A stretch of DNA of 64,000 nt from Macrostomum lignano (lineage: Eukaryota): assembly GCA_002269645.1 (NCBI GenBank), contig NIVC01003229.1:45790-109789 (forward strand), read 5' to 3'. Both the position numbers and the translations under genes were made by a program. Below are positions 9,931 through 53,433 of the stretch, one piece after another. Under the pieces are notes generated by a model. The model made no database searches. It saw nothing but the letters and a program-made list of their open reading frames with translations, and was not told where the DNA came from. Each line of letters begins with the position of its first letter. Within the stretch, counting starts at the first letter, position 1.

Positions 9931-10354
9931 AAAGCATAAAAGAATCCGCAAAGGAACAAAGAAATTTGGCGTCATTCTAAAGCGGCATGTTTCTTATTTC
10001 TAATAAATTAATTTCCCAAGCCATGGGAGAAGTGGGGTTGCTACAGATGAAGGCTGCCTTGAAGGTTTATGATGAAATGACCGAAATTCACGCGATAAAA
10101 GTTTTTTTTTTAGAAAAAAGAAACGTACCACTTTAAAAAGTTATAGACGTTCTGTTTGCAGCCGTTTCCAATCCTGCTCGCAATAAATTTTTAACTTTCA
10201 GAATTTTCCGGATACTCCTCGTATGAGAAAATACTGAAGTTACTTACTAGCTATATGAGCGGGTATAATTTCAAGCATAATTTGGGAAATTTTTGTATAT
10301 AAAACAAAGCCAATGTCTGGCACTCCTTGTGGTTATTACGATGTTTAAGCCTAA

Positions 10355-23113: not shown

Positions 23114-23744
23114 GTGATCGGGGTGAGAGGCACAAGTGACTCATGGTTGGTGATCGGGTGAGAGGCACAATTAAGTGACTCATGGTTGGTGATCAGGTGA
23201 GAGGCACAATTAAGTGACTCATGGTTGGTGATCAGGTGAGAGGCACAATTAAGTGACTCATGATTGGTGATTGGTGAGAGGCACAAGTGACTCATGGTTG
23301 GTGATTGGTGAGAGGCACAAGTGACTCATGGTTGGTGATCGGTGAGAGGCACAAGTGACTCATGGTTGGTGATCAGGTGAGAGGCACAATTAAGTGACTC
23401 ATGATTGGTGATCGGTGAGAGGCACAAGTGACTCATGGTTGGTGATCGATGAGAGGCACAAGTGACTCATGATTGGTGATTGGTGAGAGGCACAAGTGAC
23501 TCATGATTGGTGATTGGTGAGAGGCACAAGTGACTCATGATTAGTGATCGGTGAGAGGCACAAGTGACTCATGATTGGTGATTGGTGAGAGGCACAAGTG
23601 ACTCATGATTGGTGATTGGTGAGAGGCACAAGTGACTCATGATTGGTGATCGGTGAGAGGCACAAGTGACTCATGATTGGTGATTGGTGAGAGGCACAAG
23701 TGACTCATGATTGGTGATCGGTGAGAGGCACAAGTGACTAATGG
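23114..23744. repeat. 34/38-bp minisatellite (~18 copies)
   Basis: GTGACTCATG(A/G)TTGGTGAT(C/T)GGTGAGAGGCACAA(TTAA). Confidence 0.95.
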
Positions 23745-24400
23745 TTACTTACTTACTTACTTACTTTTGACGGGGTGCGCAGGTTCTACGAATAGGCCGC
23801 GAGGCCCCTATTGCAACCCTAAGGTAAAGGAGCTCAAGGATTAACCCTAGGGGTGCGCCCAGCCACCGCCAGTAGTCGGCAGGTTCGCAGTGGAGGCATC
23901 GGCGACCCTCATCCGGCCGGAGTCCCGGACGAAGGTGCGAAGGTCACGGATGTTGTCTGAGGTGGTCAGCTCGTCCATCCGCTGGGGATGGTCGAGGTAT
24001 TCGTGCCGCACCTTATTGAAGTAAGGCCAGAAGGTGAAGTGATCTCCTCTCTTATAGCACAGAAAGGACAGGTGGGAGGGCAACTGGTTTGCTACAAGAT
24101 ATATCTCTGGAAGAAGCCATGGCCGGTTAAGACCATGCACATCTCCCTGAGGTCGGTTCTGTTAAGCGAGATCAGAAAATTAGAGACTTTTCTGTTCAGG
24201 TTAGACATGGCAGAGCGGGTTTGCCTGTTGTTGGTGCAGCTGTTCTAGTGGAGCTGGTGCTGCTGATGGAGCCACCTGTTGATATGGCGGGTGAATTGCG
24301 ACCTGGGAGTGGGTAGCCTCATTCAGGGAATACTCTAAATTTGGAAGTGACACTCCCCAATGGGGGCGGACCAACCCGGGCCAACTCGTCCCGAAAACCC
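23745..24400 (-). mobile_element. 3' end of a Loa/R1-type LINE with (TAAG)n tail
   Basis: [18 protein letters not shown] region; (TTAC)n at 23746-23764 on the plus strand. Confidence 0.8.
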
Positions 24401-34360: not shown

Positions 34361-34513
34361 GATTGCTTCAATTGCTTTTTTGCTTCGAGAGTTTGTTTTA
34401 CTAGACTCCTGTATTTGTCGAAAACTTGATTCGGCAGCCTTGAGCCTCTCTTTCTTTTATAGAGCTCGAATGCAAATTCTTAAAATAAATTTGTGCCACG
34501 TTGCAAATTCCTA

Positions 34514-35514
34514 AGTAGAATGCATGAGGGGGCTTCTGGGACAAAATTTTTCACCTCCTCCATAATCCACCTAAATCCATCCATATTATCCCTGACAGAA
34601 TCAGAAAAAAGGGGGGTCGCACTCGCTCACAAAACATCCTCCATAATCCACCTAAATCCATCCATATTATCCCTGACAGAATCAGAAATAAAGGGGGTCG
34701 CACTTGCTCCGAAAACTTCGAACATAATCCTATTAAATCGATCCATTATTATCCTGACCGCTTCCGGACATTTGCCCTCCGGCACTTCCCTCCGGCACTT
34801 GCCCTCCGGCACTTCCCCTCGGCGGCGTTTGCCCTCCGGACATTTGCCCTCCGGGACATTTCCCCTCCGGACATTTGCCCTCCGGACATTTCCCCTCGGG
34901 GACATTTGCCCTCGGGGACATTTGCCCTCCGGACATTTGCCCTCCGGACATTTCCCCTCCGCACATTTGCCCTCTGCAAATTTACCCCCTCGCACATTAC
35001 TCACCTCACCTCCTCCTGTACCCACCCGTCGTTCCTCCAGCACCAACCTCATCCTCCCGCCTCTTGCATCCATCGGGTTCTTCTCCAGCCAACAACTCAT
35101 CCTTTTCTAGTAAGCAATATATACCCGCGCCCTACCCTATCCCCAGCCTTACCTGTACTTTTTCCAGAGGGGAAATGTCCGGAGGGCAAATGTCCGGAGG
35201 GCAAATGTCCGAGGGCAAATGTCCCCGAGGGCAAATGTCCGGAGGGCAAATGTCCGGAGGGCAAATGTCCCCGAGGGCAAATGTCCTCGAGGGCAAATGT
35301 CCGGAGGGGAAATGCCGGAGGGCAAATGTCCGGAGGGCAAATGCCGGAGGGCAAATGTCCGGTAGCCATCCCTGACAGAATCAGAGCATAACAGATGTCC
35401 ACTAACACCTGTTATGCTCACTGACACCGACATCCACCCATAACATTTCTAAAACAATCAGAAAATAATCTGCATTCTTCTCCCCACATTCAATTCGCAA
35501 CGCGAAACCAGATC
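34514..35514 (+). repeat. Left TIR of the Polinton, interrupted by a 610-bp insertion
   Basis: 34514-34757 plus 35368-35514 match the reverse complement of 50472-50855 with about 7 substitutions. Confidence 0.95.
34758..35367. mobile_element. Foldback-like MITE with arrays of GGACATTTGCCCTCC in opposite orientations
   Basis: Absent from the right TIR; flanked by ATCCTGA / ATCCCTGA (probable 8-bp TSD with a 1-nt loss). Confidence 0.8.
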
Positions 35515-35580
35515 CCTAAAACTTTAAATCATCAGCGCAGGGTCCTTACCCATTGAAAAAAATCTAATTTTTCTCTAAAA

Positions 35581-35816
35581 ATGTTTGCAGTTGTCTCTCC
35601 AGGTTCTTATTACAAAGCGGACGAGCCTAATTACAAGAGTAAGTACAATGCAAGAAGGAATGCAGTGAGTACATGATAAAATATTGGCCCAACGTTGATA
35701 TCAATGTCCCTAATATTAATCTAGCTCTCCAAAGACACTGGTTTCATAAGTATGGAGTAGTCATTAACGATTACGACAGCTACTATAACTTTGCAGAAAT
35801 CATTAAGCAATTGTGA
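35581..35816 (+). CDS. Small Polinton ORF (~78 aa if one -1 frameshift is corrected), function unknown
   Basis: TAAAAATG start; MFAVVSPGSYYKADEPNYKSKY / KKECSEYMIKYWPNV...FAEIIKQL*. Confidence 0.45.
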
Positions 35817-35820
35817 TTTC

Positions 35821-36684
35821 TTACATTCTCTCAATGATCAACGTCAATACAAACTCTTCCCCATTAAAATCAACGCCCATCCCATCTTCAGTCTCAAACT
35901 GTAGCACAATCTCGTGAATCTCTTTATTACTCAATACAACTCTTTTCACTGGATTTGGTTTCTCTACCACCATCTGTCCTCCAGCAACAGAGTTGGAGAT
36001 GTTGTACAAAATATTCGTTCGCTTTCCCTTAAATACCCAATCAAGACTGAGATTGCTTCTGATTAGAATATTCAAACCCTTTACAATGTCTGCAATATTG
36101 GGTGCTAAGAACAAACCGCTTACACTTTCCCGGACCATTCTAACAGTCCCCGATGCTTGAGTGGCGGTCTGCGCCGCGGATTCTGCCTTATAAACTTTCT
36201 TCTCGAATCCTAGTTCCCTATACCAAGTGTCATCTTTAAACTCAACCTCCGCATTTTTGTGAACTTGCATGACCACTCTCATTACAGTGAGATCATAGGT
36301 TAGTTTGACAGGGAACAGTTTCTTCTCTGGCTTACTCGCATCAGGTGTCTCAAAATGGCCTCTCTTAGTAAAGACATTTTCTAGAAAGTTATTGTAGGTA
36401 TCCACACTTTGCGTGCTCACATGGAATACCACAGGGTCTTCTGCTGCACCTTTCCATTTGTAATAAAACTTATTATTTGCTGCCATCACATTGGGAACGT
36501 TTGACCAACCAGTGAAGTCGTTAAGATAGACATGGTAATTAGCACCTGGATCCAGGCGAATCGCCTGCTCTAATTTTTCATTAAATATCCCGTTTGAGTC
36601 ATTAATTCGCCCGGTTACTGTAATAGGAATGCTCTCCTTAGAGTGTGAAACAATGTTGTTTAGTCTTTCGGCTATAGCTTCCAT
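35821..36684 (-). CDS. Minor capsid protein (penton-like), intact
   Basis: ~287 aa; IRLDPGANYHVYL..WSNVPNVMAANNKFYY resembles Polinton penton N-termini; adjacent to MCP. Confidence 0.75.
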   Translation of the reverse strand: MEAIAERLNNIVSHSKESIPITVTGRINDSNGIFNEKLEQAIRLDPGANYHVYLNDFTGWSNVPNVMAANNKFYYKWKGAAEDPVVFHVSTQSVDTYNNFLENVFTKRGHFETPDASKPEKKLFPVKLTYDLTVMRVVMQVHKNAEVEFKDDTWYRELGFEKKVYKAESAAQTATQASGTVRMVRESVSGLFLAPNIADIVKGLNILIRSNLSLDWVFKGKRTNILYNISNSVAGGQMVVEKPNPVKRVVLSNKEIHEIVLQFETEDGMGVDFNGEEFVLTLIIERM

Positions 36685-36707
36685 TTTTTTCACCCACAAA
36701 AAAATAT

Positions 36708-37994
36708 TTAAACTTTACTGGATGAATTGTTGATCATGTTAAGCTTCACCTTCCTCTCAAATGCATAGATAATGTACAGGTCCACGGGTGTTGCGGTAGT
36801 CCTTTCAATGTTAGTCACGATATTCACAGGGCTGTTATCAGTAGGCATTTGTCTGGCAGACACATCAGCGCCAAACATCGGATATAGAGTTCCATATTGA
36901 AGAGCAGTGATAGCAATTCCATTGTTCTCTTTCACAGCCAAGTCGACCAACTCGCTGTAAAATTTGCTAATCTTGTTCTGACTGAAATCTCCATTTTGTG
37001 GCAGTGCAGGGTAAAGATTATCACTGATTTCATGCTGAATGGACCGCACGTCTCCATGCATGTAGCGTATGATGCTATTTGGGTTTCTCATATTAATAAT
37101 GATATACCTTGGATTGCTGCATGATCCCTCTTTAATGCAGATATTTGTTCTAGTTTCGTTTCGCTCATCTCGACACATGTAGGCTGTGTATGCAACATCA
37201 ATGTCCTTCTCTATTGCCTTAAGATAATCCGCTTTTAGTGCAGTCTTTGGCTCAATGACTTCCAAATACAGCTCGATTCCGGTTAGCTTCACCTCCATCC
37301 TTGTGTGGTCCGCCCCAGTCCACAACACTCTACTGCGATCATCTCTAGTCATCCTAAATGTGTAGCTAAAGTTACTAGTCAGTCGATTAAATGTATTACA
37401 GAATCCACTCATGAATCTCAATGGTACAAATACATCAACAGACCGATACTGCGGGTTCTTAGCAGCATCATCTGCACCTTGCAATGCATAGTTGTATCTC
37501 TTCTTCCTATTTTTATAGCCACTGTCATTGGTGTCTCCTTCTTTTTCATCTGCGATAAAACCCGCACCACTTCCCAACTGAATAAAATCAGGATTCTCGA
37601 TCAAACAATGAGCGTCATAGACAATTCCAAAGTTGGCGATTCGCTCCAACTCAGTGCTCCCATTCGATACACTAAACTCCTTGAACATGTACGCCCAAAA
37701 GTTACTGATCAGAGCCACATCCGCATCATGCTTGTCAACGTTAGCACGAGCCGCATCCGCACCACCTTTTGTCTTGAATTGAAATGTCATATGGAAGCCG
37801 CTCTTAAGACTGTGCACACTAACCAGAGACGAACATCCATTGTATGTAAATGTCAGTGTTTGACCTGGACCCAAATTAGTTTCATTCTGGTTCTCGTGAC
37901 TCGGAACTCTAACTTGTGTCGCTTTGATTGTGCTATCATCACTCAAAATAGGCTTGTTAATTTTGTAGAAAACTGGTGTCAGTGGGTCGTTCAT
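36708..37994 (-). CDS. Major capsid protein (double jelly-roll type), intact 428 aa
   Basis: Size, beta-rich sequence and Polinton MCP-like N-terminus (ILSDDSTI..NL...LTF); located next to the penton gene. Confidence 0.82.
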   Translation of the reverse strand: MNDPLTPVFYKINKPILSDDSTIKATQVRVPSHENQNETNLGPGQTLTFTYNGCSSLVSVHSLKSGFHMTFQFKTKGGADAARANVDKHDADVALISNFWAYMFKEFSVSNGSTELERIANFGIVYDAHCLIENPDFIQLGSGAGFIADEKEGDTNDSGYKNRKKRYNYALQGADDAAKNPQYRSVDVFVPLRFMSGFCNTFNRLTSNFSYTFRMTRDDRSRVLWTGADHTRMEVKLTGIELYLEVIEPKTALKADYLKAIEKDIDVAYTAYMCRDERNETRTNICIKEGSCSNPRYIIINMRNPNSIIRYMHGDVRSIQHEISDNLYPALPQNGDFSQNKISKFYSELVDLAVKENNGIAITALQYGTLYPMFGADVSARQMPTDNSPVNIVTNIERTTATPVDLYIIYAFERKVKLNMINNSSSKV

Positions 37995-38024
37995 TTTTTA
38001 ACTAAAAATAAAATAAAATAAGAA

Positions 38025-39239
38025 ATGAAGCGGAAAAGTTCATATCATATCTCTGAACTAGAAAAGCTGGCGCAAGCAGAGAAACGAGTTACCGGACTAA
38101 TCAACAAAGAACAACAATCTTACAATGAATTCGTCCAAGCAGCCACCGAATTTCACAAACCTGGATACACAGAAGCGAAGAAAAACATCGACACTGTGAA
38201 GGAAACAATTGATGATATTCAAGAGAGCCAGTTGCAAAACACATTGGGTAAAATCCCATCTTCACCGGGACAACCACAGGCTCAGCAACCAGGACAACCA
38301 GTGCAGATGAAAGTGACGGATAACTTTTTTGGCCCCGTAACGGATGATGGAAAATATATATTTGGAATTAGCGCCTGGCGAAAAAATATCACCGGGGAAC
38401 CGGCGGATTACAACATTGAAGTGACGAAGGAAACTATTTCAATCAATAAAGGCGCAGAAACTAAACGAATCCCCTTCACTCAAAGTTTACTCGACTACAT
38501 GACTAAAAATCAGGAAAAAATATCCGAGAAGCAATTAAAGAATTATAGAGATCTGGTTACCTTCGCTTTAGAGAGGGACATAGACATTCTCAAGAACAAC
38601 GGTGTTTTGAAAGTTTTACATGAAAACAGGATTGACTTGAACAGGTTTAGAAAATACAAATACTTTAAACAATGGTTTGGTTTGCCGGATCAAGAAGAGG
38701 TCATAAGACAACAACCACAACAACCACAGCCACAACAGCAGCAACCACAACAGCAGCAACCAAAACAACAACTACAACAACCACAACAGCAGCAACCACA
38801 AACACAACCACAACCACAACAACCTCCACCGCCACAGCAACAAATCACACCCGAACAAGTACTAGAAGCGCTTGAAAAAGCAGGGCCAAATGAGATTTCC
38901 CAGTACAAAGATACAAACCCTGATACTTGGCGACAATTAGAGCGGCTCTCCCCAGAACGAATGAAGCGAATCAATGACAGAGTATTCACACCTCAACAAA
39001 GACAAGCGCCACATGACAGTTCCTCCTCTGACCAATCATTCGAATCACCTCCAAGCTCTTCCGGAAAAGGCATGCCTGAATTCTACAAGCGGTTAGCTGT
39101 TCTTCTAGGAGCGGCAAAGACCGGAATGAAAGACGAGAATAGAAAAGAATTTGTCAACATCCTGGACAAAATGCTTGAGAGAAAATATATCGATAAAAGA
39201 GCAAGAGAACTTTTGCTTTCACGGTTTAACAAAAAATAA
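38025..39239 (+). CDS. 404-aa Polinton protein with poly-Q/P linker and C-terminal helical motif
   Basis: Intact ORF; C-terminal RLAVLLGAAKTG..EFVNILDKML resembles a motif I recall from Polinton accessory proteins. Confidence 0.7.
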   Translation: MKRKSSYHISELEKLAQAEKRVTGLINKEQQSYNEFVQAATEFHKPGYTEAKKNIDTVKETIDDIQESQLQNTLGKIPSSPGQPQAQQPGQPVQMKVTDNFFGPVTDDGKYIFGISAWRKNITGEPADYNIEVTKETISINKGAETKRIPFTQSLLDYMTKNQEKISEKQLKNYRDLVTFALERDIDILKNNGVLKVLHENRIDLNRFRKYKYFKQWFGLPDQEEVIRQQPQQPQPQQQQPQQQQPKQQLQQPQQQQPQTQPQPQQPPPPQQQITPEQVLEALEKAGPNEISQYKDTNPDTWRQLERLSPERMKRINDRVFTPQQRQAPHDSSSSDQSFESPPSSSGKGMPEFYKRLAVLLGAAKTGMKDENRKEFVNILDKMLERKYIDKRARELLLSRFNKK

Positions 39240-39255
39240 ATTTCTATTTAAAAAG

Positions 39256-39621
39256 ATGCCAATTATTTTCGAAAAAGACATTGACAAATACTACGACAAA
39301 GAGGAACTTAATCTCATTAAACGCGGATCTGGACTTTTCCCTGCAGGCCACTATCCAAGAAAAGAACGCTCTGGGAATGGCCTTGCTGATTTGATCGCTC
39401 AAGGGGCCAAGATTTTTAAGGTCATTGGAGAGAACAAAGAGAACATCAAGAACGTTGCCGAAGCGGCTGGCAGTGTAGCCACAGCAGCCAAAAAGATTAA
39501 AGATACGTAAAACCTAAACGATATTCAACCCCTTGCACCGAGTGCAGATAGTGTCGATCCAGCCATCTACGCAAAGATGAGAGCTGAATATAAGAAAGGA
39601 GGCGGTTTTAAATTTGACTAA
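39256..39621 (+). CDS. Small amphipathic virion-core/membrane-active-like protein (in-frame TAA at ~39508)
   Basis: GSG, GNG and GGG motifs; GLADLIAQGAKIFKVIG amphipathic helix; a second partial copy at 40316-40594. Confidence 0.6.
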
Positions 39622-39776
39622 TTTGGTGCACCCTGACGGTAAAAGAGGTGTGAGGGTGTAGGACTAGTCGGATGTAGGACTAGTCGAAAAAAGACACACA
39701 CATACACATCCCGAAAAAAAGACACACGCGTCTTAAATACACAAGTTTAAAAAGAAAAAGTTTTTTTACATAAAAA

Positions 39777-41467
39777 ATGGACTTCACAAACGACTTTCAT
39801 CCCCACTGGACACGCAATCAGATAAAATTTGCTCACAACGAGATAATTCCAGGGCACTTCCGATGCATTGTTGTTGGCTCATCTGGGTCAGGGAAAACCT
39901 TCAGAGTTTTTAACATGCTCCTCAGACCTGGATTCCTCGATTATGACACACTACATATCTATTCACCCACTCTGTATCAAGATGAGTATAAAATGCTAGT
40001 AGCGGGCCTACAGAACAAACTCAACAAGGAAGATATTATTCAATGTTTTAGACATCAAAAAGACCTCAACAGCAACCCGGAAGTTGTAGCCACTGAATAC
40101 GCAAAGCACATCCCAGACAATGAAAAATGGCAAAATATTAAAGTTTTCACTTATGGAGATCCACAGATAGATCCTAAAACTAAACTCTTACCTCAACCTG
40201 ATGAACTAGAAAAGGGGAGAAAGCACCTGATTGTCTTTGATGACTGCATGACCGGTCCCAGAAACAGATAGAAAATTATTTCACCCGGGGTAGACACAAT
40301 AACTGCAATGTTATTAATCTCATTAAACGCGGATCTGGACTTTTCCCTGCAGGCCACTATCCAAGAAAAGAACGCTCTGGTGGCCTTGATTTGATCGCTG
40401 GGGCCAAGATTTTTAAGGTCATTGGAGAGAACAAAGAGAACATCAAGAACGTTGCCGAAGCGGCTGGCAGTGTAGCCACAGCAGCCAAAAAGATTAAAGA
40501 TAATTATGCACCGAGTGCAGATAGTGTCGATCCAGCCATCTACGCAAAGATGAGAGCTGAATATAAGAAAGGAGGCGGTTTTAAATTTGACTAATTTGGT
40601 GCACCCTGACGGTAAAAGAGGTGTGAGGGTGTAGGACTAGTCGGATGTAGGACTAGTCGACAGGACACACGCGTCTTAAATACACAAGTTTAAAAAGAAA
40701 AAGTTTTTTTACATGGACTTCACAAACGACTTTCATATAATCAGAGTCATTGCACTTCCGATGCATTGTTGTTGGCTCATCTGGGTCAGGGAAAACCTTC
40801 AGAGTTTTTAACATGCTCCTCAGACCTGGATTCCTCGATTATGACACACTACATATCTATTCACCCACTCTGTATCAAGATGAGTATAAAATGCTAGTAG
40901 CGGGCCTACAGAACAAACTCAACAAGGAAGATATTATTCAATGTTTTAGACATCAAAAGACCTCAACAGCAACCCGGAAGTTGTAGCCACTGAATACGCA
41001 AAGCACATCCCAGACAATGAAAAATGGCAAAATATTAAAGTTTTCACTTATGGAGATCCACAGATAGATCCTAAAACTAAACTCTTACCTCAACCTGATG
41101 AACTAGAAAAGGGGAGAAAGCACCTGATTGATGACTGCATGACCGGTCCCAGAAACAGATAGAAAATTATTTCACCCGGGGTAGACACAATAACTGCAAT
41201 GTTATTTACATTGCCCAAAACTGGTTTGAACTGCCAAATAAAACAATTAGAGGTAACTGTAATTTGATTCTCCTTTTCCCAACCATACCACAGGATCGAC
41301 TGAAACGATTTTATAATGAGGTCATTGCCCCAGCTCACATTACATATCCAGCTAAGAACTCTAACAGAACAATATCACAGGAGGAATTTGTTAACATATG
41401 CTATGAAAAGTGGAACCAACCCTATCAGTTTGTCATGATTAATAAGGAGAAAAGAATTTTACTTTAA
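39777..41467 (+). CDS. A32/FtsK-like packaging ATPase, split by an internal tandem duplication and frameshifts
   Basis: Walker A GSSGSGKT, Walker B LIVFDD, then TRGRHNNCNVIYIAQ..LP..IRGN. Confidence 0.92.
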
Positions 41468-41483
41468 TTTTTCATTTAAAAAA

Positions 41484-42260
41484 ATGTCTATTAATTTTGG
41501 TGAGTCAACTACAGGCAACAGCACTCTCACAACTTCCTTCCTTGACAAGCGCTACATTAACACTGATGAAGAGATCCCAGAGATCAAACTGAATAAAAAC
41601 AGACTGAAAGCCCTAGAGCGCTCCATGCACCAGTTGCAAATAAACATGGAAGATCTCAGGCTTAAAGTAGCTAGGCAGAAGTTTGAAAGTGATAAGCTTT
41701 ATGTGCCGTTGTTAAACGCAACTAATGAACTAAGGTCAGAAATAACTTCGATAGTCTCGCTAATCAACGGCTTAAGATCGACAGTTAATCTTCTGGGAAA
41801 TTCCACTGATAGACGGATGCGTATTCTTGAAGGAGGAGTTTTCACAAACACAGCTAAAGTAAATAATTTAGAAGAGTTCATGAACCAGTCAACAGCGTTG
41901 CATGATAGAATTAGAGAAAACGTCGCAACCAACACAGGTAAAGTGAGGAATTTAGAAGAGTTCATGACTCAGTCAACAGCGTTGCATGATCGAATCAAAG
42001 AAAGACTTGAAGCATTAAAGAGAAAGGATGTATCACACAGTAGCTATCTAAACGGAATGTATAGCGCTTGGGGTAAAATAATAAGGAGGCTTGATCGTCT
42101 GGAGAGAACACTCAATCTTCGTGATATTGCTATTGATGAAGCAGAATCTACTGCTCGTCCGGTCATGTCTATTAATGAAATTATCGAATTTCATCAAAAT
42201 CAAATCAAATCAAAAGAAAACAGGTCTTTTTTCAAAACAATAGATCTTCAAACCGGATAG
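41484..42260 (+). CDS. 258-aa coiled-coil protein (fibre/spike candidate)
   Basis: Heptad-rich; internal 25-aa repeat NTxKVxNLEEFMxQSTALHDRI. Confidence 0.6.
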   Translation: MSINFGESTTGNSTLTTSFLDKRYINTDEEIPEIKLNKNRLKALERSMHQLQINMEDLRLKVARQKFESDKLYVPLLNATNELRSEITSIVSLINGLRSTVNLLGNSTDRRMRILEGGVFTNTAKVNNLEEFMNQSTALHDRIRENVATNTGKVRNLEEFMTQSTALHDRIKERLEALKRKDVSHSSYLNGMYSAWGKIIRRLDRLERTLNLRDIAIDEAESTARPVMSINEIIEFHQNQIKSKENRSFFKTIDLQTG

Positions 42261-42294
42261 TTTTGTAATTTTTTTATTTTTTCTAGGGAAAAAA

Positions 42295-42995
42295 ACCCAA
42301 CAAAATTCTCTATACGATCAGTCTCAATACGCTGAACCTAAAATACCGACAGCACCAAACCCAATGGACCGAATTCGAACACACAAAGCCTGAATGCACC
42401 GAATCTGAATGCACCTCAATATGAGCAACAAAAACTCTACCCCGTCATTTCATGTAACTCTCAACAGTTTCGACTGGTGGAGATTCAAAAAATGCGAGAT
42501 GATCTTGAAAAAAATATTTTCCACAACACAAAGAAAATTAAGCGCTATGACAGCCACTGTAAATTTTTCGACTACAGCAATATGATTCTAGGATCTGTGT
42601 CTGTTCTATCTGGATCTGCTGCAGCTGTCTCAACGTTGCCAGTCATCACAGCCCCAATCGCAATTCCGCTCGGCTCTGTGGGTGCTGCATGTGGACTTAT
42701 TTCAGCAATTACTGGAGCATTAGCGCGAAACAGGCGAAAAAAACTAAAGCAGCTACAGGAGAAGCAAGTAAAAGAGAAAGGGGTGCACACTTCAATCATA
42801 GGGTACATTTCAAGGGCAATCGAGGATAAGTTCATTTCAGAGGATGAGTTCAAAACCATTCAGGATCTTTATGAACAATCAATTCGAATGAACTTGAACA
42901 TGGTCGGTACTGATGACATGAGTCAGCTGAGAAATGAACTCGAGAAAGTTCTTCAACATTATGCGGAAAGAAAGTCGGCAAGAAATGCACAATGA
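42295..42995 (+). CDS. Polinton PX-like hydrophobic membrane protein; 5' end disrupted
   Basis: LYP..FRL..I..., two hydrophobic segments, basic stretch, ISRAIEDKFISEDEF. Confidence 0.75.
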
Positions 42996-42999
42996 ACCC

Positions 43000-43407
43000 C
43001 TATGAAACACAGCCTAGAATAATTTCCTTGTAGGTCTTTCGTGTTTTGGTCATTGCATACAAAACAGTCATGCACAGCTCACCGCAAATATCACTGCTAA
43101 GACCTTGGAGAATAAAGTCTGAGCGATAAATTTTTTTATTATTTTTTCCCTTCATATAATTTCTTAGCTCTTCTGGTACTGCCGTCCCATAGCTATCGAA
43201 GTAATAACACTTGTGCTTGCGATCGGGATCAATCACCCAGCAAACCCAATGAGATCCTGGCTTATCAGTGCTGTCAAAGTTCATGATGCCGCATTCTTTT
43301 CTTAGAGGAAAATCAGGCAGAGTGTCCCTCATAAATACGAGTATTCCTCTAAAGTTTGGGATTTCCAGTTCGTTAGCCAAATCTTCAAGAAAGTTATTTG
43401 TTGTCAT
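43000..43407 (-). CDS. Adenain/Ulp1-like cysteine maturation protease, intact
   Basis: GSHWV, YYFDSYG, Q and ICG catalytic motifs. Confidence 0.93.
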   Translation of the reverse strand: MTTNNFLEDLANELEIPNFRGILVFMRDTLPDFPLRKECGIMNFDSTDKPGSHWVCWVIDPDRKHKCYYFDSYGTAVPEELRNYMKGKNNKKIYRSDFILQGLSSDICGELCMTVLYAMTKTRKTYKEIILGCVS

Positions 43408-43480
43408 TTTTTATGAGGTTTATTCAACTTTCTCTTAAACCTAAACCCAATCTCAACCTCCTAAACCCAACCTCCTAAGC

Positions 43481-46268
43481 CTAATCTCCACCTCCTAAAC
43501 CTAATCTCCAGTGCCCGAACGGCAGACTGTTGATATTGTCATCAAAAATGAATCTCTTGTTATCTGCACCTGACAATCCAATCTTCTTTTGCTGAATTGT
43601 GTGAATAATATGGTTTTTAGATTGTAGCTTTGAGAACTCATGTGATGTCTTTTTGTTACAATTCAAGGCGTCTCTGTATTCAGCTTCATTAAGTTCCTTC
43701 CTAACCACACGTTTCGGAATTCCCTTTGATTTTTTAATTGGGTCTGACGACTCACATTTTACAAAATAGGACTTTGCTCTCAACCCAATGAATTCAGTGA
43801 TTATGTCACCAGCAATCTCGTCCTTCATTTTCCCAATCACTTTCTTGTTAGTAGCGTCAAACACTTGATCGCCATTCTGTGTCCTGAAAGATCATCATAC
43901 TCAGACAAGTCAAACAAATCTTTTTGCTGCAGCATGTCCTGATAAATGTCTTCTGTTTGAATGTCCATAATGAAACTGTCTGTGTCAGTGTACAAAGTTT
44001 CATTTTATCCTTGTACTGCTGCTTCATGCCATAGAAGAACTGGTACATCAGACGTTTTGATTCGTCGAGAACAGTGACACCTGTATAGATCGGCTTGCGC
44101 AGCGTCACCTTGGTTTTGTAAAATATGATCACACCTAAGTAGCTATTAAAGATATGGAGTTCTTTGAATGTTGGCTTTGACATATTTGCCTGAATAACAG
44201 CAGGCTCTGATGAGGTAACAAGTTTCAGGTTTGTTCTTTTCCGCTCATTCTCAAGAGTCTTGCCATAGACGGAGTTGTTGGCTAACTTAAAGAGGTTCTT
44301 GTCAAAGTCGTTGGTTGCTTTGGTCCTAAACTGGGTGTTCTTATCAATGTAGGGTTTCATCCACGCTTCCTCTGTAAATGTAAGAGCCCTGTGAACTTTG
44401 GTGACCCTGCAACCCAGTGAGATAAAATACTGAAGCAGTTTGTAATGGATTTTGTAACGTGTCTTGTTGTTTAGATTCTGTGTTAGTTTCTCTGTATGTT
44501 CTTTTTCTGTTCCTGACAGGTGCCAAGTTCCATTATTATCATTGGGAGTTTCGATTATTTTCGGGCACTTAATGTTCTCTGGGAAGGGTGGAAAGTCAGA
44601 GAAATAGTCGTGAAGCTCTGTGGAATGTAAACATCAACCTCATAAATGGCAGCCAATGAAAAGTCCCACTTTAGTTCTGATGAGGGTAGCCATCGAAAAT
44701 CTCTAACTGGAAGATCTTGACTCATCGCCCACCCGTAGAGATTATTAGCGTCCAAGTAAGTAATGTAGTTTGAGGGTTGCTCCTTATTGTAAGATTCAAT
44801 GTAGGGATTGTTTGCTTTTGCATACCTGTTAACGCAAATTGAGATCCCCCTCGCTTTGACGATTCGACAAAATTGTACATGTCAATGTCTGTAAGAAGTT
44901 CAATGTACCAATCTGGATCTTGATCCCATTTCATTTTAAGCAAAGATTCCCAGCTAGTGGCGGGCAGAGACACATAATGTGCTGGATCGAGGCCATATGC
45001 TGTGTACCAGGTGTCTCTGAAGGTTTCAAACACATCGGCCAGCAGAAACACATCTGTGTAGAGGTAAAGCAGGTGATACTGGAAAAAGTTTTGACAATTA
45101 AAGTAATTATAGACATGCTTCGCGTGCTCATAGTCTTTGTCAGAGATTCCAGAGTCTGTTAGCTTTGAAAAGAACTTTTCTTGTGGTGGTAAACCATCTT
45201 CAAATACGTGATACCCAGTAATATTTTCATAGGGGTAGAAGCCTTTCTTTCTTAAAAGTTTAAATGATTCATCACTGTTGTTAATTTGACTTGAAAATAT
45301 CTTTGTATATGTACATTGTTCATCTTTTAGATTCTTGCTTAGTTCGTCTAGACTGGCAGCTAGAAATTGATATGAATCCTTCAGTCTTATTTTACCTGTA
45401 ATTGAATTATCCTGTTTAATATCAACACACTTAAACTTCTCCTTGTTCTCTGCGATGCAATCAAGGTGTATGTCTGGAATCATGCCGATTTTTTCAACTA
45501 TTAAATGCATGTCATAGTTCTTTGCGTTGTGACAAAATATCGTTAGATCATGAATGTTCGATTTTAGCTTTAAATTACAGGTGTTATGCGCTGCGCCTCT
45601 AAATTTCCCAGTAAAGTGGCAGTGGTCCCTAACGGTGGGGTTTTTTAAATCAGTGCAAGTTAAATGTTTCCTGCAGATGTGGCAATGAGTTGCTGATAGG
45701 AAATTGCTTTCATCCTCCTCATACATACTTATTGGAACAGGTTGAAGGGTGCTAATCACTTTTTGCAGCTCTAACATTCTGGCAATAAACTGCTCCACAC
45801 ACTGCTCTCCAAAGAAATAATTATACTCAACAAGTCCTTTTGTAGTAATAAAGGCATATGCTACTGAGTTGGGGACATGTTTTTGAGTTTGAGTTTGTTT
45901 TTTGAGTATGAGTTTGTTTTTGAGTCTCTGGCACGATTGAGCATTCGAAATCAGCATATACAACAAATGGGAGCTTCTCCATCTTGTGATAGTTCTTAAA
46001 ACGGAGATACTTCTCTTCAGCTGAAGGAAGAGAGCAGTTTGTCGGGTGATCCTCGCATGATAATTCATGGATTTTTTATAGGCGCATACTGGTTGGATTC
46101 TAATTGTTTGATGATTTCCAACTGTTTTTCATAGCTTCCCAGGTGACCGGGGTCGGTGTTAAACTTTTGTTTACATGCTTCTCTTAGTAAATTACTTTTG
46201 TCTTGAAATGAGACGCCTTTTGAAAAATGTTTGTTGACTAAATCTTTTGCTGGATTACCTTTTGGCAT
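43481..46268 (-). CDS. polB: Protein-primed family B DNA polymerase, several frameshifts
   Basis: VVYADFE (ExoI), HNAKNYD (ExoII), KGFYPY, YTDVFLLADVFETFR, DANNLYGWAM, KLANNSVYGK, YTDTDS, KSY; endonuclease-VII-like CHIC..DHCH..AHNTCN. Confidence 0.95.
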
Positions 46269-46392
46269 TTTTTTCTCTAAAATAAACAAAATTTTTGAGG
46301 GTGACCACCCTGATAGAAAAGTTGAACTGTTTCTACATCCTATAAGTAGCGCTAGGTTTATGAAGCTGGATAAAGTGGGGTTTTAAACCTCA

Positions 46393-46839
46393 TCACATCC
46401 GCATTATTGTAAACCCAGCATTGTGTAGTGTCATGATTGCTTTGACAATGTCAGACTTGCTTACAGAATTTTCATGCTCACAATCATCAAAATCCGGGCA
46501 GCCCTCTCCTGCCTTAATTGTTATACCTTTATCTCTTGCAATCTTTTGCAATTCCAGCTGGTGGGCTCTATCATTACCAGCTTTAACAGCAGTTGCTACA
46601 CCTCCAGCTACACCACCTGCGGCACTTACAGCGCCTGCAATGATCGGAATAAGAGCTGCTAATGGTAGGATTCCTCCTGACTTTTCATCTGTGATGCTGT
46701 GTCTTTGCTCATTACACTGAACTATTTGCTGCACGGGATCGACTTTTACTTTGGCACCTTTAATTGATATAAGACCTGGTTTCTTTGATTCAATGATTTT
46801 ATTGAGTTTATTGAGGGTTCTAGTTTCAATCTTTGTCAT
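46393..46839 (-). CDS. 148-aa adenovirus pX-like core/membrane protein
   Basis: SGGILPLAALIPIIAGAVSAAGGVA resembles the adenovirus pX C-terminus (GGILPLLIPLIAAAIGAVPGIASVA, recalled from memory). Confidence 0.7.
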   Translation of the reverse strand: MTKIETRTLNKLNKIIESKKPGLISIKGAKVKVDPVQQIVQCNEQRHSITDEKSGGILPLAALIPIIAGAVSAAGGVAGGVATAVKAGNDRAHQLELQKIARDKGITIKAGEGCPDFDDCEHENSVSKSDIVKAIMTLHNAGFTIMRM

Positions 46840-46855
46840 TTTTTATTTTAATATT

Positions 46856-47851
46856 TTAATTAATTTCCGTGTCAGCTGGTATCATTAGGAGTTCAGCTCT
46901 AGTGAATGACCGCGTGGGGGATTTAGGGTTAAAGGCCTGAGATAAAAAGTAATAGTCACCGGAGTCGGAGGTAAAATGTCTGTCTATTTTATGTACATCA
47001 AGGCTGAAGTATGGATCTGTAGCTCTTCTTTTGGTGTCCTTCTCTAGCTCTCCAGGTAGATATAAAAAGCGTAGAAACTCAGAGTTTGTCAGTATGTATG
47101 GTGATTCAACTCCTGGAAGCTTAGGGTAGTTCGAGGTGTCTGTTCTATGAGATGACTTAAGTTCGACAGTGTCTTGTTTAATTGCATGGGATGGTTTCAA
47201 TCCAGTCATGCGTGTGACTTCATTGTTCAGTTGCTCTATAACAGTGGGGAGCCGGTCTGTCCACTTGGTATAGTACTGACCACCTTTTAGTTTCAGCTCT
47301 TCAGCTGTCTGCTTTGTGAATAGTCTCTTGGCTAGAGTTAGATTGAATCTTTCCACAAAAGCCTGGTCTCTGTGGAGCTCAGTTCTGCCATAGCGAATTT
47401 TTGCGTCATACTTATGTAGAAGTGATTTCACTGCCCCAAAGAATTCTTTACCCGGGTCCGTCATAAAGATTTGGGGGTATGTGAGCGGAGAGTTTTTATA
47501 AATATCTTGGAGGGCGGCTGCAACTGCTTCTGACTTCTTCGTCTTAAGCGGTCTCGCTTCCTTATATCTGGAGGCAACGTCTGTAATTGTAAGAGCATAC
47601 TTGTAGCCTGAGTCGTTGGGGAGAAACAAAAGATCTGCTTGGTGCGCTTCATTAGGTTTATAGATGCTAAAGTGAGGTCTTGTAAATTTTACTGGTGGGA
47701 AATAGACTTGAAAGAGAGCCTGCTTAGAGAGCCATTTTTCTACTGTAGCTTTTGGTTCCTTACTCAGCTCCATGAGTTTACTAACGGCATTTTTGCCTAC
47801 AAAGAATCCTTTGTCGCTGTAGTAGAGTTTTTTAAGTTTCTGATCTGTCAT
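46856..47851 (-). CDS. int: Retroviral-type DDE integrase, intact 331 aa
   Basis: HQADL, MTDPGKEF, VERFN. Confidence 0.95.
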   Translation of the reverse strand: MTDQKLKKLYYSDKGFFVGKNAVSKLMELSKEPKATVEKWLSKQALFQVYFPPVKFTRPHFSIYKPNEAHQADLLFLPNDSGYKYALTITDVASRYKEARPLKTKKSEAVAAALQDIYKNSPLTYPQIFMTDPGKEFFGAVKSLLHKYDAKIRYGRTELHRDQAFVERFNLTLAKRLFTKQTAEELKLKGGQYYTKWTDRLPTVIEQLNNEVTRMTGLKPSHAIKQDTVELKSSHRTDTSNYPKLPGVESPYILTNSEFLRFLYLPGELEKDTKRRATDPYFSLDVHKIDRHFTSDSGDYYFLSQAFNPKSPTRSFTRAELLMIPADTEIN

Positions 47852-47881
47852 TTATTTAAAAAGAAAATTTTAAATAAAATA

Positions 47882-48370
47882 ATGCAGCGCTCTGGTGGTA
47901 AAATAGATTCACATGGACTGATAGAAAAGCTTCCTCATCCAAACAAAGGCTGGACACTTCCCGGCTATAAATATTGCGGGCCTTTGAATCCACTTGAAAT
48001 ACAGCTAGATAAAAACAATAATCCACATCCTGGGCATGAGCCTGTGAACGAGCTAGACTCTGTCTGCATGTGGCACGACGTTAAGTATAGAGATTTTCCT
48101 GAGGAGAAGAATCGTTGGGACAAAGAAATGCTCAGGAGACTCGACAATATAGGGGCTTCAAGCGGATTTCGTGAGTCGATCGCTCGGAAGCTAGTTAAAG
48201 CTGTTATTTTTAGTAAGACAAAACTGGGGTTGGGGGTGTACGCCGAGGGCGGGTGTTTGGGGAGAGAGGGCGGGTGCACGGGGTGCTCGGGAACAGGGTT
48301 TATTTTGTGTGCTCCAAACGAGGAACTAGGAAGACTGCTGAAAGATATGGGGATAGAGAGAGACGCTTGA
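47882..48370 (+). CDS. Parvovirus VP1u-type phospholipase A2 protein (162 aa)
   Basis: LPGYKYCGPLN calcium-loop motif and NELDSVCMWHDVKY catalytic HDxxY. Confidence 0.88.
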   Translation: MQRSGGKIDSHGLIEKLPHPNKGWTLPGYKYCGPLNPLEIQLDKNNNPHPGHEPVNELDSVCMWHDVKYRDFPEEKNRWDKEMLRRLDNIGASSGFRESIARKLVKAVIFSKTKLGLGVYAEGGCLGREGGCTGCSGTGFILCAPNEELGRLLKDMGIERDA

Positions 48371-48576
48371 GTCGGGAAGGATTTAAAAAAAAGACTCATC
48401 GATATTAAATTGTAATAAGTGAAGAGCTTGGTTAAATATTTTATTTTATGTTAATAAACAAAAAAAACATTAACACAAAGTTGTTCAAAGTTACATATAA
48501 TAATTTGCTTAGTTAATTCATTCAGTTATTATTTCATTGAAAACTACTATGAGTAGGCTTAGCTTCGAAAAAAGTT

Positions 48577-49260
48577 CTAAACACTTTCCTGGATCTCCAG
48601 GATTTTTTTCCAGGATTTTTTTTCCAGGATTTTATCCAGGATTTTATCAATGTAAGCCGCTCATAGTGGTTTTCAGGGTAAAATAACAGGATTATTTTTT
48701 TAATTTTAATAAGTGAAGAGCATGGTTAAATATTTTATTTTATGTTAATAAACAAAAAAAAACATTAATACAAAGTTGTTCAAAGTTACTTATAATAATT
48801 TGCTTAGTTAATTCATCCAGTTATTATTACATTGAAAACACTACGAGTAGGCTTAGCTTCGAAAAAAATTCTAAACACTTTCCTGGATCTCTAGGATTTT
48901 TTTCCAGGATTTTTTTCCAGGATTTTATCAATGTAAACTACTCATAGTAGTCCTCTAAACACTTTCCTGGATCTCCAGGATTTTTTTCCAGGATTTTTTT
49001 CCAGGATTTTATCAATGTAAGCTACTAATAGTAGTTTTCTAAACACTTTCCTGGATCTCCAGGATTTTTTCCAGGATTTTTTTCCAGGATTTTATCAATG
49101 TAAACTACTCATAGTAGTCTTCTAACACTTTCCTGGATCTCCAGGATTTTTTTCCAGGATTTTTTCCAGGATTTTATCAATGTAAACTACTCATAGTAGT
49201 CCTCTAAACACTTTCCTGGATCTCCAGGATTTTTTTCCAGGATTTTATCAATGTGAACTA
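48577..49260. repeat. Palindrome-containing ~83-bp repeat array inside the Polinton
   Basis: ACTTTCCTGGATCTCCAGGA at ~48583, 48877, 48961, 49045, 49127, 49210; plus a ~300-bp duplication (48408.. vs 48709..). Confidence 0.93.
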
Positions 49261-49328
49261 GTTTTCAAGGTAAAATAACAGGATGAATTTTTTTACGTTA
49301 CAATTTGTTTAGTTTATTCATCCTTGGC

Positions 49329-50207
49329 TTAGTCGACTGATGCAGTCGCCAACTCCATCGTAGTCTCCTCCAGCAAGGCGTCCTCGTTCTCTCCTTCAAA
49401 CACGATGGCAATATCAGTCTCCAACTTGCAGCAGAAGTTGTCGTCCTGCTCCGCCTCTTTCTCGATCGCTCTTTTGTATGTGAGCAGCGACTCGAACGAG
49501 TGCCCGGAGAAGACTAAATTTGGGTACTTCCTGATGAACCCGTGGAAGGTGTACAGTCGTTCGGCGAACTTGGGGTCGATGTCCAGTCGCTTGGCGGCTC
49601 CTTCTGTTGAGAGACCTTGGGTCTTAATAGACGCGAGGATCTCCGCCTGCTTTTTTCTCGCCAGACAGGTGAGCACCTCCAAGTCCCCAATGAAGGACTC
49701 TAAACTGGCGAACTGCGTCAACATTCCGTCCACATCCGTTTGAACGTCGGCCAAGCATAACGCTTTAGCGTTGTAGAAACTAAAAAAAGCAATAACACGG
49801 AATCATAATGTAAAATATGTTTCGCTTTCTAGAAATCATAAAAACCTTAAGTAATTTAAATCACGTTTTAACCAAGTCAAGGATTGCAAATAATAGAATA
49901 AGCAAAAAAAAACTTACCGCGTCTTGATGTCGATCTGCTCATTTTTAATTTTTTTGAGACTCTCTTTTAGACGCGCTATGAAGCGTGCCTCTCGGCGCTC
50001 CTTGTCATTACTGGAGCGCTTGGCCTCGTCGGATTTCTCTTTTTTCAACGATTCACGATCGATTTTTTGCAAGCATTCAAACAGTGAGGCCTGCTCCTCT
50101 TCGTTAATGGCGGTAATCGCGACAGCCGTGCTTGCGATGTCTTTGCTACTGATACTTTTAATTGTATCGATAATTTTTGTCGGCTGCTGTTTCACCTTCG
50201 AATTCAT
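49329..50207 (-). CDS. Spliced Polinton gene, 246 aa (exons 50207-49918 and 49779-49329), function unknown
   Basis: TATATAAA 50290-50283; CG|GTAAGT donor and TTTTTTAG|T acceptor join the two ORFs in frame (KTR-FYN). Confidence 0.8.
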
Positions 50208-50303
50208 GACAGAAGAGAGCAAGGTGAGGCTAGGCGAGGCAGGGCGAGTCGAGGCGGGGCGAGGTGCGGTGTGAATTGGCTGTTTATATACCCGGCAGTT
50301 GCA

Positions 50304-50360
50304 TGTAGTTGCCAACTACAAGGTAGTACCTTGTAGTTGGCAACTACAAGGTACTACCTT
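50304..50360. promoter_or_regulatory. Two overlapping perfect palindromes between the TATA box and the right TIR
   Basis: 22-bp arms around 50326 and 20-bp arms around 50340. Confidence 0.75.
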
Positions 50361-50471
50361 ATAACTTCAGCCAATGGAGAGAATGGAAAGCACATGTGGA
50401 GCGCATGGCATGGGTTTTATTTTTACGTAGAACTTACGTAAACAAGGTACTACCTTGTAGTTGGCAACTAC

Positions 50472-50855
50472 GATCTGATTTCGCGTTGCGAATTGAATGT
50501 GGGGAGAAGAATGCAGATTATTTTCTGATTGTTTTAGAAATGTCATGGGTGGATGTCGGTGTCAATGAGCATAACAGGTGTTAGTGGACATCTGTTATGC
50601 TCTGATTCTGTCAGGGATAATAATGGATGGATTTAATAGAATTATGTTCGAAGTTTTCGGAGCAAGTTCGACCCCTTTTATTTCTGATTCTGTCAGGGAT
50701 AATATGGATGGATTTAGGTGGATTATGGAGGATGTTTTGTGAGCGAGTGCGACCCCCCTTTTTTCTGATTCTGTCAGGGATAATATGGATGGATTTAGGT
50801 GGATTATGGAGGAGGTGAAAAATTTTGTCCCAGAAGCCCCCTCATGCCTTCTACT
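50472..50855 (-). repeat. Right TIR of the Polinton (384 bp)
   Basis: Reverse complement of the left TIR without the MITE. Confidence 0.96.
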
Positions 50856-51179: not shown

Positions 51180-53433
51180 GCTTTAACTTTAACTGTGGGC
51201 GAAAGTCAGAGGACAGGGATTTTCCCAGCAGAGGCAAGTGACTGTTGCCATCAACAGAGACCCAGGGATCCAATTACAATTACAGCAAAAATACTGGAAG
51301 GACAACAGGAACATGCAATCCGATGTTAATTAGATACCGGAGCTGGTGTTTCAATAATGTCCGAAATGTTGTGGAACCAGTTGGGCAGGCCTAGACTGCA
51401 ACCTTCAAGCACCAAGCTGGGTCGCTATGCCAACAACCACACATTCCAAGTACTAGGACAGAAGTGACAGAAGTGTCGGCGAAATCATAGCAGGGCGTGG
51501 TTTCTAGGCCACATTCTAGACAATGGTCGCATCTACCCGAACGACGAGAAAGTCAGTGCAATCAAGGAAATGGAGCCACCAAAAAGTTTGGCAGAATTAG
51601 AGTCATTTCTGGGATTAGTAACATTCTGTTATCGCTTCATACCTAACTTGTCAGAAATGACAACCACACTGATTTAACTGAAGCAGAAAGGTTCAAAGTT
51701 CCACTGGGGTTCAGGACAAATGGAAGCTTTCAACAACATCAAAAGGTTAATTTCAAAAGACGCAGAGTTGTCCGCTTACGATCCGAAACTACCCGTAGAA
51801 CTGGAGGTTGACGCATCGAAGAAAGCCTTGGGAGGGGTACTGAGTCAAGAAGGTCGCCTCGTACTCTATATCAGTAAAGCTCTTTCCAAAGCAGAAAAAA
51901 ACTACTCGAAAATTGAGCGTGAGGCACTGGCCATAGTCTGGGGAATTCGCAGATGCCATCGATTTCTCTGTGGGAGGAAGTTCAGCTTGGTCACGGACCA
52001 TAGATCCTTGATCTACATTTTAGCAGTCGACAAGGAACTTCCACCCCGAGTGTCTGCCAGACTACAGAGAGATGAGCGATTTTCCTTACAGCCTACGACT
52101 ATGCAATCCAGTACCGGAACACAAAGGCTATGGCTTCTGATGCGCTATCTCGACTAGTCAAGACAGGGTTAGACGAAACTACTCTGGAAATTGGAAACGT
52201 AAATGTGTTTTGCTCGCTCGTGTCAGCTAATGAGATGGTACATGCTACGAATAGTTGTCAGGACATGCGGATGCTAAAGAAAGCTGTGACAACAGGGGAC
52301 TCCAGGCATTGGGCACTGAGACCCTTCAAGCCTATCCGGGATGAACTAACTGTTCAAGATGATCTTGTTCTGAGGGGACAGAGAATCGTTGTTCCAAAAT
52401 CGCTACGTGACAGAGTGATCAAGGCCGTTCATCAAACACACCTTGGAATCGTCAGGTCAACGTCTTTGACCAGAAAAAGAGTTCTGGTGGCCTGCTATGG
52501 ACAAAGATCTCGAGAAAGCGATTGGCTTGTGTAAAATTTGCCGCTCTGCTAAGCCACAGAACCGAAATTTTCGTACATCTTGGCCGGAAGCAAATGTTCC
52601 GTGGGATCGAGTTCATGCGGATTTTGCCGGTCCCGTTGAGAACCTATATCTTCTAGTGATAGCAGACTCGTACACAGGCTACCCCGAGATCCACATCACT
52701 AAAGATATGACATCGCAAACGGTGATTCAATGTCTTCGACGAACATTTTCTCAACTGGGAATACCTCGCACCATAGTATCAGACAACGGTCCAAGCTTCA
52801 CGAGCAGGGAGTTCAGAGAATGGCTTGATGGAATCGATTGCAAACATTTGATGACTGCACCATACCATCCTCAGAGCAATGGAGCTGAAAGACTAGTACG
52901 AACACTGAAAGAGGCAATCAGAAGGTGGTGCTTCCTATCGGGCAGAGCATGGCGCTCATCAAGACAGATGAGGAACAACCAAAGTACAGGAAGGTTCACT
53001 TTGACCAAATTCAGCCATATGAACAGCCAAGTGAGCAAGCAGACGCAATGGCAGACCAACCGCGGACGGAAGAGCCTAGACCGGATGCAGAAGAAGACGC
53101 AAGTGCGAATAGTCCGGAGCCAGAACCGGATGGAGTTTAATGGGCTAAGGCGCAGTCAGCGATTAATGCAAAAACCGCGAGTTGACTATGGTTGCTGATG
53201 CTGACTTCAGCAGCGAATTGACTGTTTCCAATCACTAACTGGCGTTACTTATTGTAAGGGGGAAGATGCTGTTTGTGGGCTCAATCAGTGCCATAGTGCC
53301 TTTTTGTATAAAATATAAGCTCTGCAGAGCGAAATAAAAAGTAATTCGTTTAGCAAGACTCCGAGCGCTGAAAATATACAAGCATAAGACTCGTGTTACC
53401 TTTATGACTCCGACTCCCTAGTGCTACATAACA
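51180..53433 (+). mobile_element. Ty3/Gypsy remnant: protease, RT largely deleted, RNase H, integrase, PPT, putative 3' LTR
   Basis: LDTGAGVS; EVDASKKALG, NYSKIEREALA; HQTHLG..CKIC, HADFAGP, SDNGPSF, HPQSNG; PPT AAGGGGGAAGA then TG at 53267. Confidence 0.88.

Follow-up and report, generated by a model that had tools for sequence, protein, structure and literature searches.

A spliced gene for a predicted helix-turn-helix protein and an adjacent candidate operator array near the terminal inverted repeat of a Polinton in Macrostomum lignano

Introduction

Little is understood of how integrated Polintons are activated. The locus studied here has a spliced gene with a candidate TATA-type promoter next to the terminal inverted repeat (TIR) of such an element. 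The gene had been noted in a preliminary description of the window, by which we mean the whole 64-kb stretch of DNA that was analysed. We examined the gene, its predicted protein, a palindrome array lying behind it and the relatives of both elsewhere in the genome. The gene and its array are together called the cassette.

Results and Discussion

The Polinton carrying the gene

The element and the features flanking the cassette are as follows.

34514..50855, unstranded: Polinton/Maverick with an alpha-adintovirus-like gene set, 16,342 bp, recognised by its ends, a 6-bp target-site duplication and TIRs
50472..50855, unstranded: right TIR, 98% complementary to 34513-34754 plus 35368-35514
46856..47851, minus strand: integrase, the first core gene past the cassette (PF00665, E 1.6e-10)
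47882..48370, plus strand: PLA2 gene of parvovirus type, running towards the array (PF08398, E 1.1e-13)

Besides TIRs and the 6-bp target-site duplication, the element has the Polinton set of pPolB, rve integrase, capsid, ATPase and protease, the double jelly roll capsid and the A32 ATPase being Pfam matches below the curated cut-offs. ORFs with Pfam matches encode PolB (pfam03175), the rve integrase, an adenain-like protease, PLA2 and pX. The integrase had 121 scored matches in the genome, with 89-100% identity among the matches listed, and the closest database proteins of the element carry the label Macrostomum lignano. Since PolB is split into four reading-frame pieces (43481-46268), the window copy is probably non-autonomous.

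The ATPase and an 84-aa gene are partially duplicated in tandem at 39256-41200 (207 nt, 100% identity, 898 nt apart), with both ATPase copies interrupted. At 34755-35367 the left TIR is broken by inserted GC-rich sequence made up of 15-bp tandem repeats in inverted arrangement, which has the look of a small foldback or MITE-type element. A TIR-adjacent ORF of 80 aa, for which there was no Pfam match, is interrupted in the window (35580-35820) and intact in many sister ends (e.g., L049:2539-2778). Interrupted retrotransposon-like ORFs lie beside the right end of the element (51720-53198 and beyond), and the Polinton seems to have landed among other repeats. Tandem arrays were observed outside it at 945-1900 (period 15 nt), 3774-5400 (28 nt), 9505-9984 (18 nt) and 23122-23800 (34 nt).

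A spliced gene under selection

The transcription unit comprises the following parts.

49918..50207, minus strand: coding exon 1, residues 1-97, ATG at 50207; charged, helical N-terminal part
49780..49917, minus strand: GT-AG spliceosomal intron, 138 nt, phase 2, from a contig joint, its conserved position and UniRef record P0001
49329..49779, minus strand: coding exon 2, residues 98-246, an ORF whose stop ends at 49329
49313..49318, minus strand: AATAAA, candidate poly(A) signal 10 nt past the stop, from the sequence

It had been proposed that two ORFs join across a 138-bp intron at 49917-49780 to give 246 aa, and both the coordinates and the product were confirmed; the UniRef record P0001 (Macrostomum lignano) is the 246-aa spliced form. 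The intron begins with GTAAGT, ends with TTTTAG and has a GC content of 0.25, compared with 0.45 and 0.53 in the exons. It has the GT-AG ends and pyrimidine tract of a U2-type intron and is removed from transcripts, removal having been seen for a sister copy. The exon joint 49918/49779, at which junction reads had been predicted, was found (skip of 138 nt, CT..AC) in contigs of all four sequencing runs, which came from four studies and were only guessed to be RNA, none being on record as such. Contigs retaining the intron, derived from other copies, occurred in two of the four. The contigs extended beyond the candidate AATAAA to 49207-49256, and 50332-50415, on the far side of the TATA box from the gene, was covered by no run of the four. 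In runs X4 and X10, the long contigs with the spliced form differed from the window at 49502 (both runs) and 50194 (X10), and at both positions were identical to the sister copy L003, which is 2 nt from the window. Expression is therefore established for the family and not for the window copy.

Exon 2 had 97 genome matches, and conservation was surveyed in the best 30 of these, 29 of which had both exons. The projected donor GT was present in 27 of the 29 copies, both misses having internal stops, and the projected acceptor AG in 25, with displacement by 1-2 nt in the remaining four; intron length ranged from 72 to 228 nt. Among 11 further loci, eight had both exons, with the donor GTAAGT in every one and the acceptor exact in five. 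The splice sites persist in sister copies whose proteins are as little as about 50% identical; intron conservation in other copies was one of the checks named in the preliminary description. The intron was limited to the window-like clade, with 11 of 12 distant types open across its position and the twelfth (L045) a broken copy. In type L073 a candidate intron lies at another place, ahead of an acidic tail. Comparisons between types gave pN values of 0.21-0.32 with saturated pS (0.77-1.08) in six of six cases, which argues that the splice sites and the protein are under selection. We regard it as virtually certain that the spliced gene is real.

A gene family in a variable terminal slot

Intronless paralogs with 25-37% identity were found close to the TIR of elements that have an integrase, penton or capsid 88-98% identical to that of the window. 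Of 105 loci examined, 81 had a family match, and 71 of these were kept (10 short or weak ones being left out), representing 23 types; the family tree was weakly supported, with 3 of its 20 branches starred. Some family genes at the slot have less than 20% identity and some are inverted; the most distant slot genes were in the scoring profile, and their kinship rests on alignment. No host counterpart of the family was found. When 40 integrase-side ends were drawn from the 121 scored integrase matches, a family gene was present in 16 and no detectable one in 24. Both orientations of the cassette were seen, as were locations at each of the two ends, and it is also present inside a second Polinton family.

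Slots lacking a detectable gene and a cassette that changes end, orientation and host element are what one might expect of passenger cargo, or of a selfish cassette regulating only itself and doing nothing for the Polinton, whose dyads may be bound by host factors or have arisen by hairpin-driven duplication. Nematode Mavericks hold host-like intron-bearing cargo in the same slot, according to the available part of bioRxiv 10.1101/2022.07.12.499685. We nevertheless consider cargo decidedly unlikely here, because in the surroundings of 14 of 15 distant loci there were Polinton genes, an ATPase-like ORF, a TIR or a cassette of the same type, the gene is under purifying selection, and the dyad shifts with gene type while the core stays alike.

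Predicted fold of the protein

Two parts of the protein are of particular concern.

49527..49670, minus strand: predicted helix-turn-helix (HTH), approximately residues 134-181, recognition helix starting DPKFAERL, from the AlphaFold2 model and a DeoR match
49332..49418, minus strand: acidic, hydrophobic C-terminal tail, candidate activation region (9 D/E and 0 K/R in 29 aa)

The protein had been described as having a charged helical N-terminus and a possible HTH-like segment. The AlphaFold2 model bore this out, with helices and a true HTH fold that had structural matches to HTH domains. The pLDDT was 88.8 over the full length and 94.8 over residues 108-221, and the modelled order is long N-terminal helices, a long helix, the HTH, three short helices and the acidic tail. 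The best structural match was the DeoR HTH (Z 8.8, rmsd 1.5 Å, 50 residues). The longest were ParB, KorB, Spo0J and VirB (Z 6.0-7.1, 76-90 residues), covering only residues ~133-229, and a search with the domain alone placed KorB first (Z 6.0, rmsd 3.3 Å, 79 residues). The ParB and KorB scores (Z 5.4-7.1) tie with or fall below those of unrelated HTH matches. These middling values establish an HTH in the model and not membership of the ParB family. Foldseek searches against the PDB and viral models gave no match at E <= 0.001.

Sequence searches added little. Pfam gave no named family for the protein, exon 2 included; matches to HTH profiles were weak, and those to End3 and similar families were rejected as coiled-coil noise. 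The ESM Atlas returned unnamed clusters with weak DUF3102 and DUF6192 leads; DUF3102 (PF11300) was absent among the Pfam matches listed and came up in the atlas solely for P0015, a distant relative, at a low rank. When 1.84 billion representatives were searched, 14 matched; of the 10 proteins looked up, 4 had M. lignano records and the other 6 had ENA/Logan records without a name. Viral and metagenome scans for relatives outside this genome gave no loci, and P0015 retrieved only itself. The acidic tail was present in most window-like types and in L080; several types (L036, L046, L054, L055 and L062) had none, which counts against the activator reading proposed below. Taken together with its structural matches, the model indicates that the protein is very probably a DNA-binding HTH protein.

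A palindrome array paired with gene type

48520..49270, unstranded: array of ~84-bp units with the dyad TCCTGG-AGAT-CCAGGA and extra half-sites, candidate operator array, from the sequence

Exact copies of the 16-bp dyad lie at 48587, 48965, 49049, 49131 and 49214 and nowhere else in the window; its absence from the gene promoter, the TIRs and the core promoters of this copy is a point against the activator reading. Genome-wide there were 85 exact dyads on 37 contigs, compared with 0 for a reversed control, and at least 26 of the 37 contigs were also among the integrase or family-gene matches listed. Most gene types have a palindrome of their own, 16-17 bp long, behind the gene, with sites starting 14-230 nt past the stop codon. 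The dyad arms vary symmetrically by type (TCCTGG..CCAGGA, TTCTGG..CCAGAA, TCCTGA..TCAGGA), and other types have other dyads, namely TTACG-N6-CGTAA (L038, L080), TTCTA-N7-TAGAA (L054) and TATTG-N7-CAATA (L047).

The HTH domain was compared with the dyad across the 23 types by seeking T[CT]CTG-N5-7-CAG[GA]A within 900 nt 3' of the domain. The motif was found in 9 of the 11 types with a K-x-x-[EQ]-R recognition helix and in 2 of the 12 others, and these two exceptions have near-matching helices (KKAERV and NFSQRL). Of the two misses among the 11, L023 has had its 3' region replaced by PolB sequence and L089 differs by one mismatch. Types with window-like recognition helices keep the motif despite saturated silent sites, and L042 keeps it with a protein 36% identical and no alignable flank. 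In none of the 71 loci did the motif lie upstream of the gene, and the idea that the gene regulates itself by way of a promoter site was rejected. Because the motif was defined on the loci that were counted, the types are related, the tree is weak, and the array is inherited together with the gene next to it, the pairing is no independent test; it is a strong lead from sequence comparison.

Other observations complicate the pairing. In the array of type L031, units of the window type are interspersed (94% identical), and four ends (L049, L050, L053 and L060) have 5-10 TCCTG-N6-CAGGA sites and no detected family gene; both run against the activator reading, and the latter ends could respond to protein made in trans. 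By a strict rule there was no repeated dyad in L036, L045, L046, L055, L062, L073 and others, which likewise counts against that reading. Repeated dyads occurred in 25 of the 40 sampled ends versus 1 of 200 shuffled sequences, a weak control since tandem duplication multiplies any chance dyad. Repeated GGCCT-N6-AGGCC dyads were observed in L048, L057, L064, L069 and L083, where no HTH gene was detected in 5 kb, again a point against the activator reading. AACGCGTT-centred dyads lie beside the sister types L054 and L055 and a partial ORF in L067. On balance, the protein probably binds the array behind its gene.

Binding of this kind might also serve episome maintenance, with the array as a parS- or oriP-like anchor or origin and the protein tethering or licensing free linear genomes. 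A 16-bp dyad is the format of parS; ParB, Spo0J, KorB and VirB are the longest structural matches and stand at the top of weak Foldseek lists, and arrays are retained in ends without the gene. We think this role improbable. The N-terminal CTPase of ParB (ParBc) had no Pfam match in the protein, residues 1-97 being modelled with high confidence as long helices, and the structural matches are limited to residues ~133-229. There was no ParA-like ORF among the ORFs of the element, 15 of the 40 ends lacked a repeated dyad, and Polinton replication is generally taken to be protein-primed, starting at the ends of the element.

Promoter region and contrast with the core genes

50283..50290, minus strand: TATA box TATATAAA, starting at 50290, 83 nt upstream of the ATG
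50305..50471, unstranded: promoter region with three copies of the 15-bp palindrome GTAGTTG-N-CAACTAC (50305, 50333 and 50457), from the sequence
50371..50375, plus strand: CCAAT, from the preliminary description; probably chance

A TATA box had been placed about 80 bp upstream of the gene. It is present at 83 nt, and TATAWAWR occurs 60-100 nt upstream in 21 of the 29 copies; the contigs do not map a transcription start, and the TATA-type Pol II promoter is a candidate. The CCAAT reported at ~50371 does exist on the plus strand, but it is conserved only in L001-L004 and L014, and this 5-mer, common by chance, was rejected as a promoter element. The GTAGTTG-N-CAACTAC palindrome, which may resemble an RFX X-box, has three copies in the 64 kb, all within 50305..50471. 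Three-unit heat-shock elements were found upstream in 24 of 45 loci. None was found in the window copy or in L002-L004, the expressed sister L003 included; this counts against the activator reading, and a heat-shock promoter was rejected for the window copy. These copies have the GTAGTTG palindromes in place of heat-shock elements, so that the same coding sequence stands behind two promoter types. In M. lignano, LTR retrotransposons are induced by heat through such elements (PMC12801592, available part). A 5' spliced leader was also considered, one contig having 31 unaligned letters that end at 50251, and is not proposed, since there is no acceptor AG at this position, where L005-type copies diverge. 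We infer that host RNA polymerase II transcribes the gene from the integrated copy.

The gene has a pyrimidine/GC-rich leader and GC3 values of 0.56 and 0.72, whereas the 12 core ORFs have A/T-rich leaders and GC3 values of 0.31-0.47. AAAA directly precedes the ATG in 8 of the 12 core ORFs, compared with 17 of 596 ATGs in the element. The contrast in leader and GC3 upholds the claim that a spliced, TATA-type gene stands apart from the rest of the element. In the capsid (37995-38005) and PolB (46269-46290) leaders, T-rich tracts ending in AG were observed just before the A-run and ATG; they look like splice acceptors, and addition of a spliced leader to the core genes is conceivable.

The preliminary description had gone on to suggest an adenovirus-like division into early and late genes, in which the protein would transactivate the late structural genes at their own promoters. 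A Pol II-type promoter with an intron, an HTH with an acidic tail and the A-run starts of the core ORFs would all suit such an early regulator. The division was not supported, however: the starts of PolB and integrase are A/T-rich, the same as those of the capsid genes, and since these two group with the core, the split is between one cassette and the whole core, not between early and late. In the window copy no candidate binding site was found before any core gene, the structural genes included. Adenovirus late genes are themselves transcribed by Pol II and spliced, and to our knowledge E1A is not a sequence-specific HTH protein. The LXCXE motif beside paired CXXC that marks adintovirus Oncoid (E1A-like) genes, as defined in the accessible text of PMC8502044, is absent from the 246 aa. 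We therefore regard an early regulator of this kind as very improbable.

Proposed role of the cassette

The reading that we prefer, tentatively and by analogy with the VANC proteins of VANDAL transposons, is that of a host-transcribed, type-specific DNA-binding activator with its own operator array. In an integrated copy, host Pol II would make the mRNA of the HTH protein, a dimer of which would read the 5-N6-5 dyad. The acidic tail might recruit the host transcription machinery, and the array would serve both the gene and the neighbouring PLA2 and integrase starts as an enhancer. In this way the protein would switch on, or keep unsilenced, elements of matching type. That the protein activates or anti-silences elements of its own type is a possibility to which we give serious but less than even weight.

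The same array could instead be bound by a repressor, a latency or immunity factor made from the integrated copy and silencing its own type or blocking read-through into it, in the manner of a phage repressor or KorB. Type-specific sites resemble phage immunity groups, the repressor KorB is among the closest domain-length folds, and sites 14-230 nt past the stop are where a roadblock would act. Transcripts were also present in all four runs, themselves guessed to be RNA, with no inducing condition on record. A repressor is nonetheless unlikely in our judgement: the acidic-hydrophobic tails of most types and the heat-shock promoters of 24 of 45 loci suit an inducer better, and no site overlaps the promoter in the window copy.

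More broadly, we put forward with considerable doubt a picture of an exchangeable regulator-plus-operator cassette that combines a prokaryote-style HTH family, host promoters (TATA and heat-shock), an intron in one clade and private 16-bp palindromes. If it is true, near-identical elements would gain private specificity groups, switching on or excluding only their own type. In animals, such a system would correspond to the immunity groups of phages and to plant VANC/VANDAL, and would offer a handle on the start of Polinton gene expression. Taken by itself the intron is unremarkable, and there are precedents for it; the interest comes from the type-matched candidate operator arrays. The locus is a tangible candidate in a laboratory species for which transgenesis exists, offering a transcribed gene, a predicted fold and a 16-bp site, and natural variants of protein and site permit swap controls.

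Comparison with known systems

In the literature consulted, which included few subscription papers or Repbase reports, there was no Macrostomum Polinton and no Polinton HTH gene with palindrome arrays. A comparable gene was not seen in the available parts of PMC8502044, PMC11296320, bioRxiv 10.1101/2023.08.22.554363, 10.1101/2022.07.28.501842 and 10.64898/2026.10.13.758929. The element shares pfam03175 PolB, rve, adenain-like protease, PLA2, pX and TIRs with the alpha adintoviruses and Maverick-Polintons of PMC8502044, but the accessible text of that paper describes no spliced HTH gene or palindrome array in adintoviruses, and the flatworm protein lacks the Oncoid motifs.

The modelled protein resembles ParB, Spo0J, KorB and VirB, and DeoR/SorC-type proteins, in that more helices come after the HTH (KorB Z 6.0-6.5, 78-79 residues), and in its candidate site, a dyad of approximately 16 bp. 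Unlike these, it has no CTPase or effector domain, and its long N-terminal helices and acidic tail are without counterpart. Baculovirus IE1 with the hr palindromes and Epstein-Barr virus EBNA1 with oriP each pair a host-transcribed viral protein with a palindrome array acting at a distance. The flatworm case differs in that no structural match to IE1 or EBNA1 was found among the matches listed, and in that its array is single, gene-adjacent and exchanged with the gene.

In Arabidopsis VANDAL transposons, the targets of VANC are tandem repeats that differ between related elements (PMC5735166, available part). The likeness lies in an element-encoded protein and element-specific tandem motifs, which are candidates here. 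VANC binding and anti-silencing are experimental findings, whereas the flatworm case is known from sequence; the elements belong to different classes and no homology is claimed. The closest parallel in position comes from nematode Mavericks (wasp, krma), which, in the accessible part of bioRxiv 10.1101/2022.07.12.499685, have 2-5 kb of high GC and low conservation between TIR and integrase, with intron-bearing genes there and an intronless core. The window element likewise has a variable GC-rich, intron-bearing gene between TIR and integrase. The nematode cargo consists of proteases and kinases judged to be host-derived, whereas the flatworm slot holds one diverse predicted HTH family, most types of which have a palindrome of their own.
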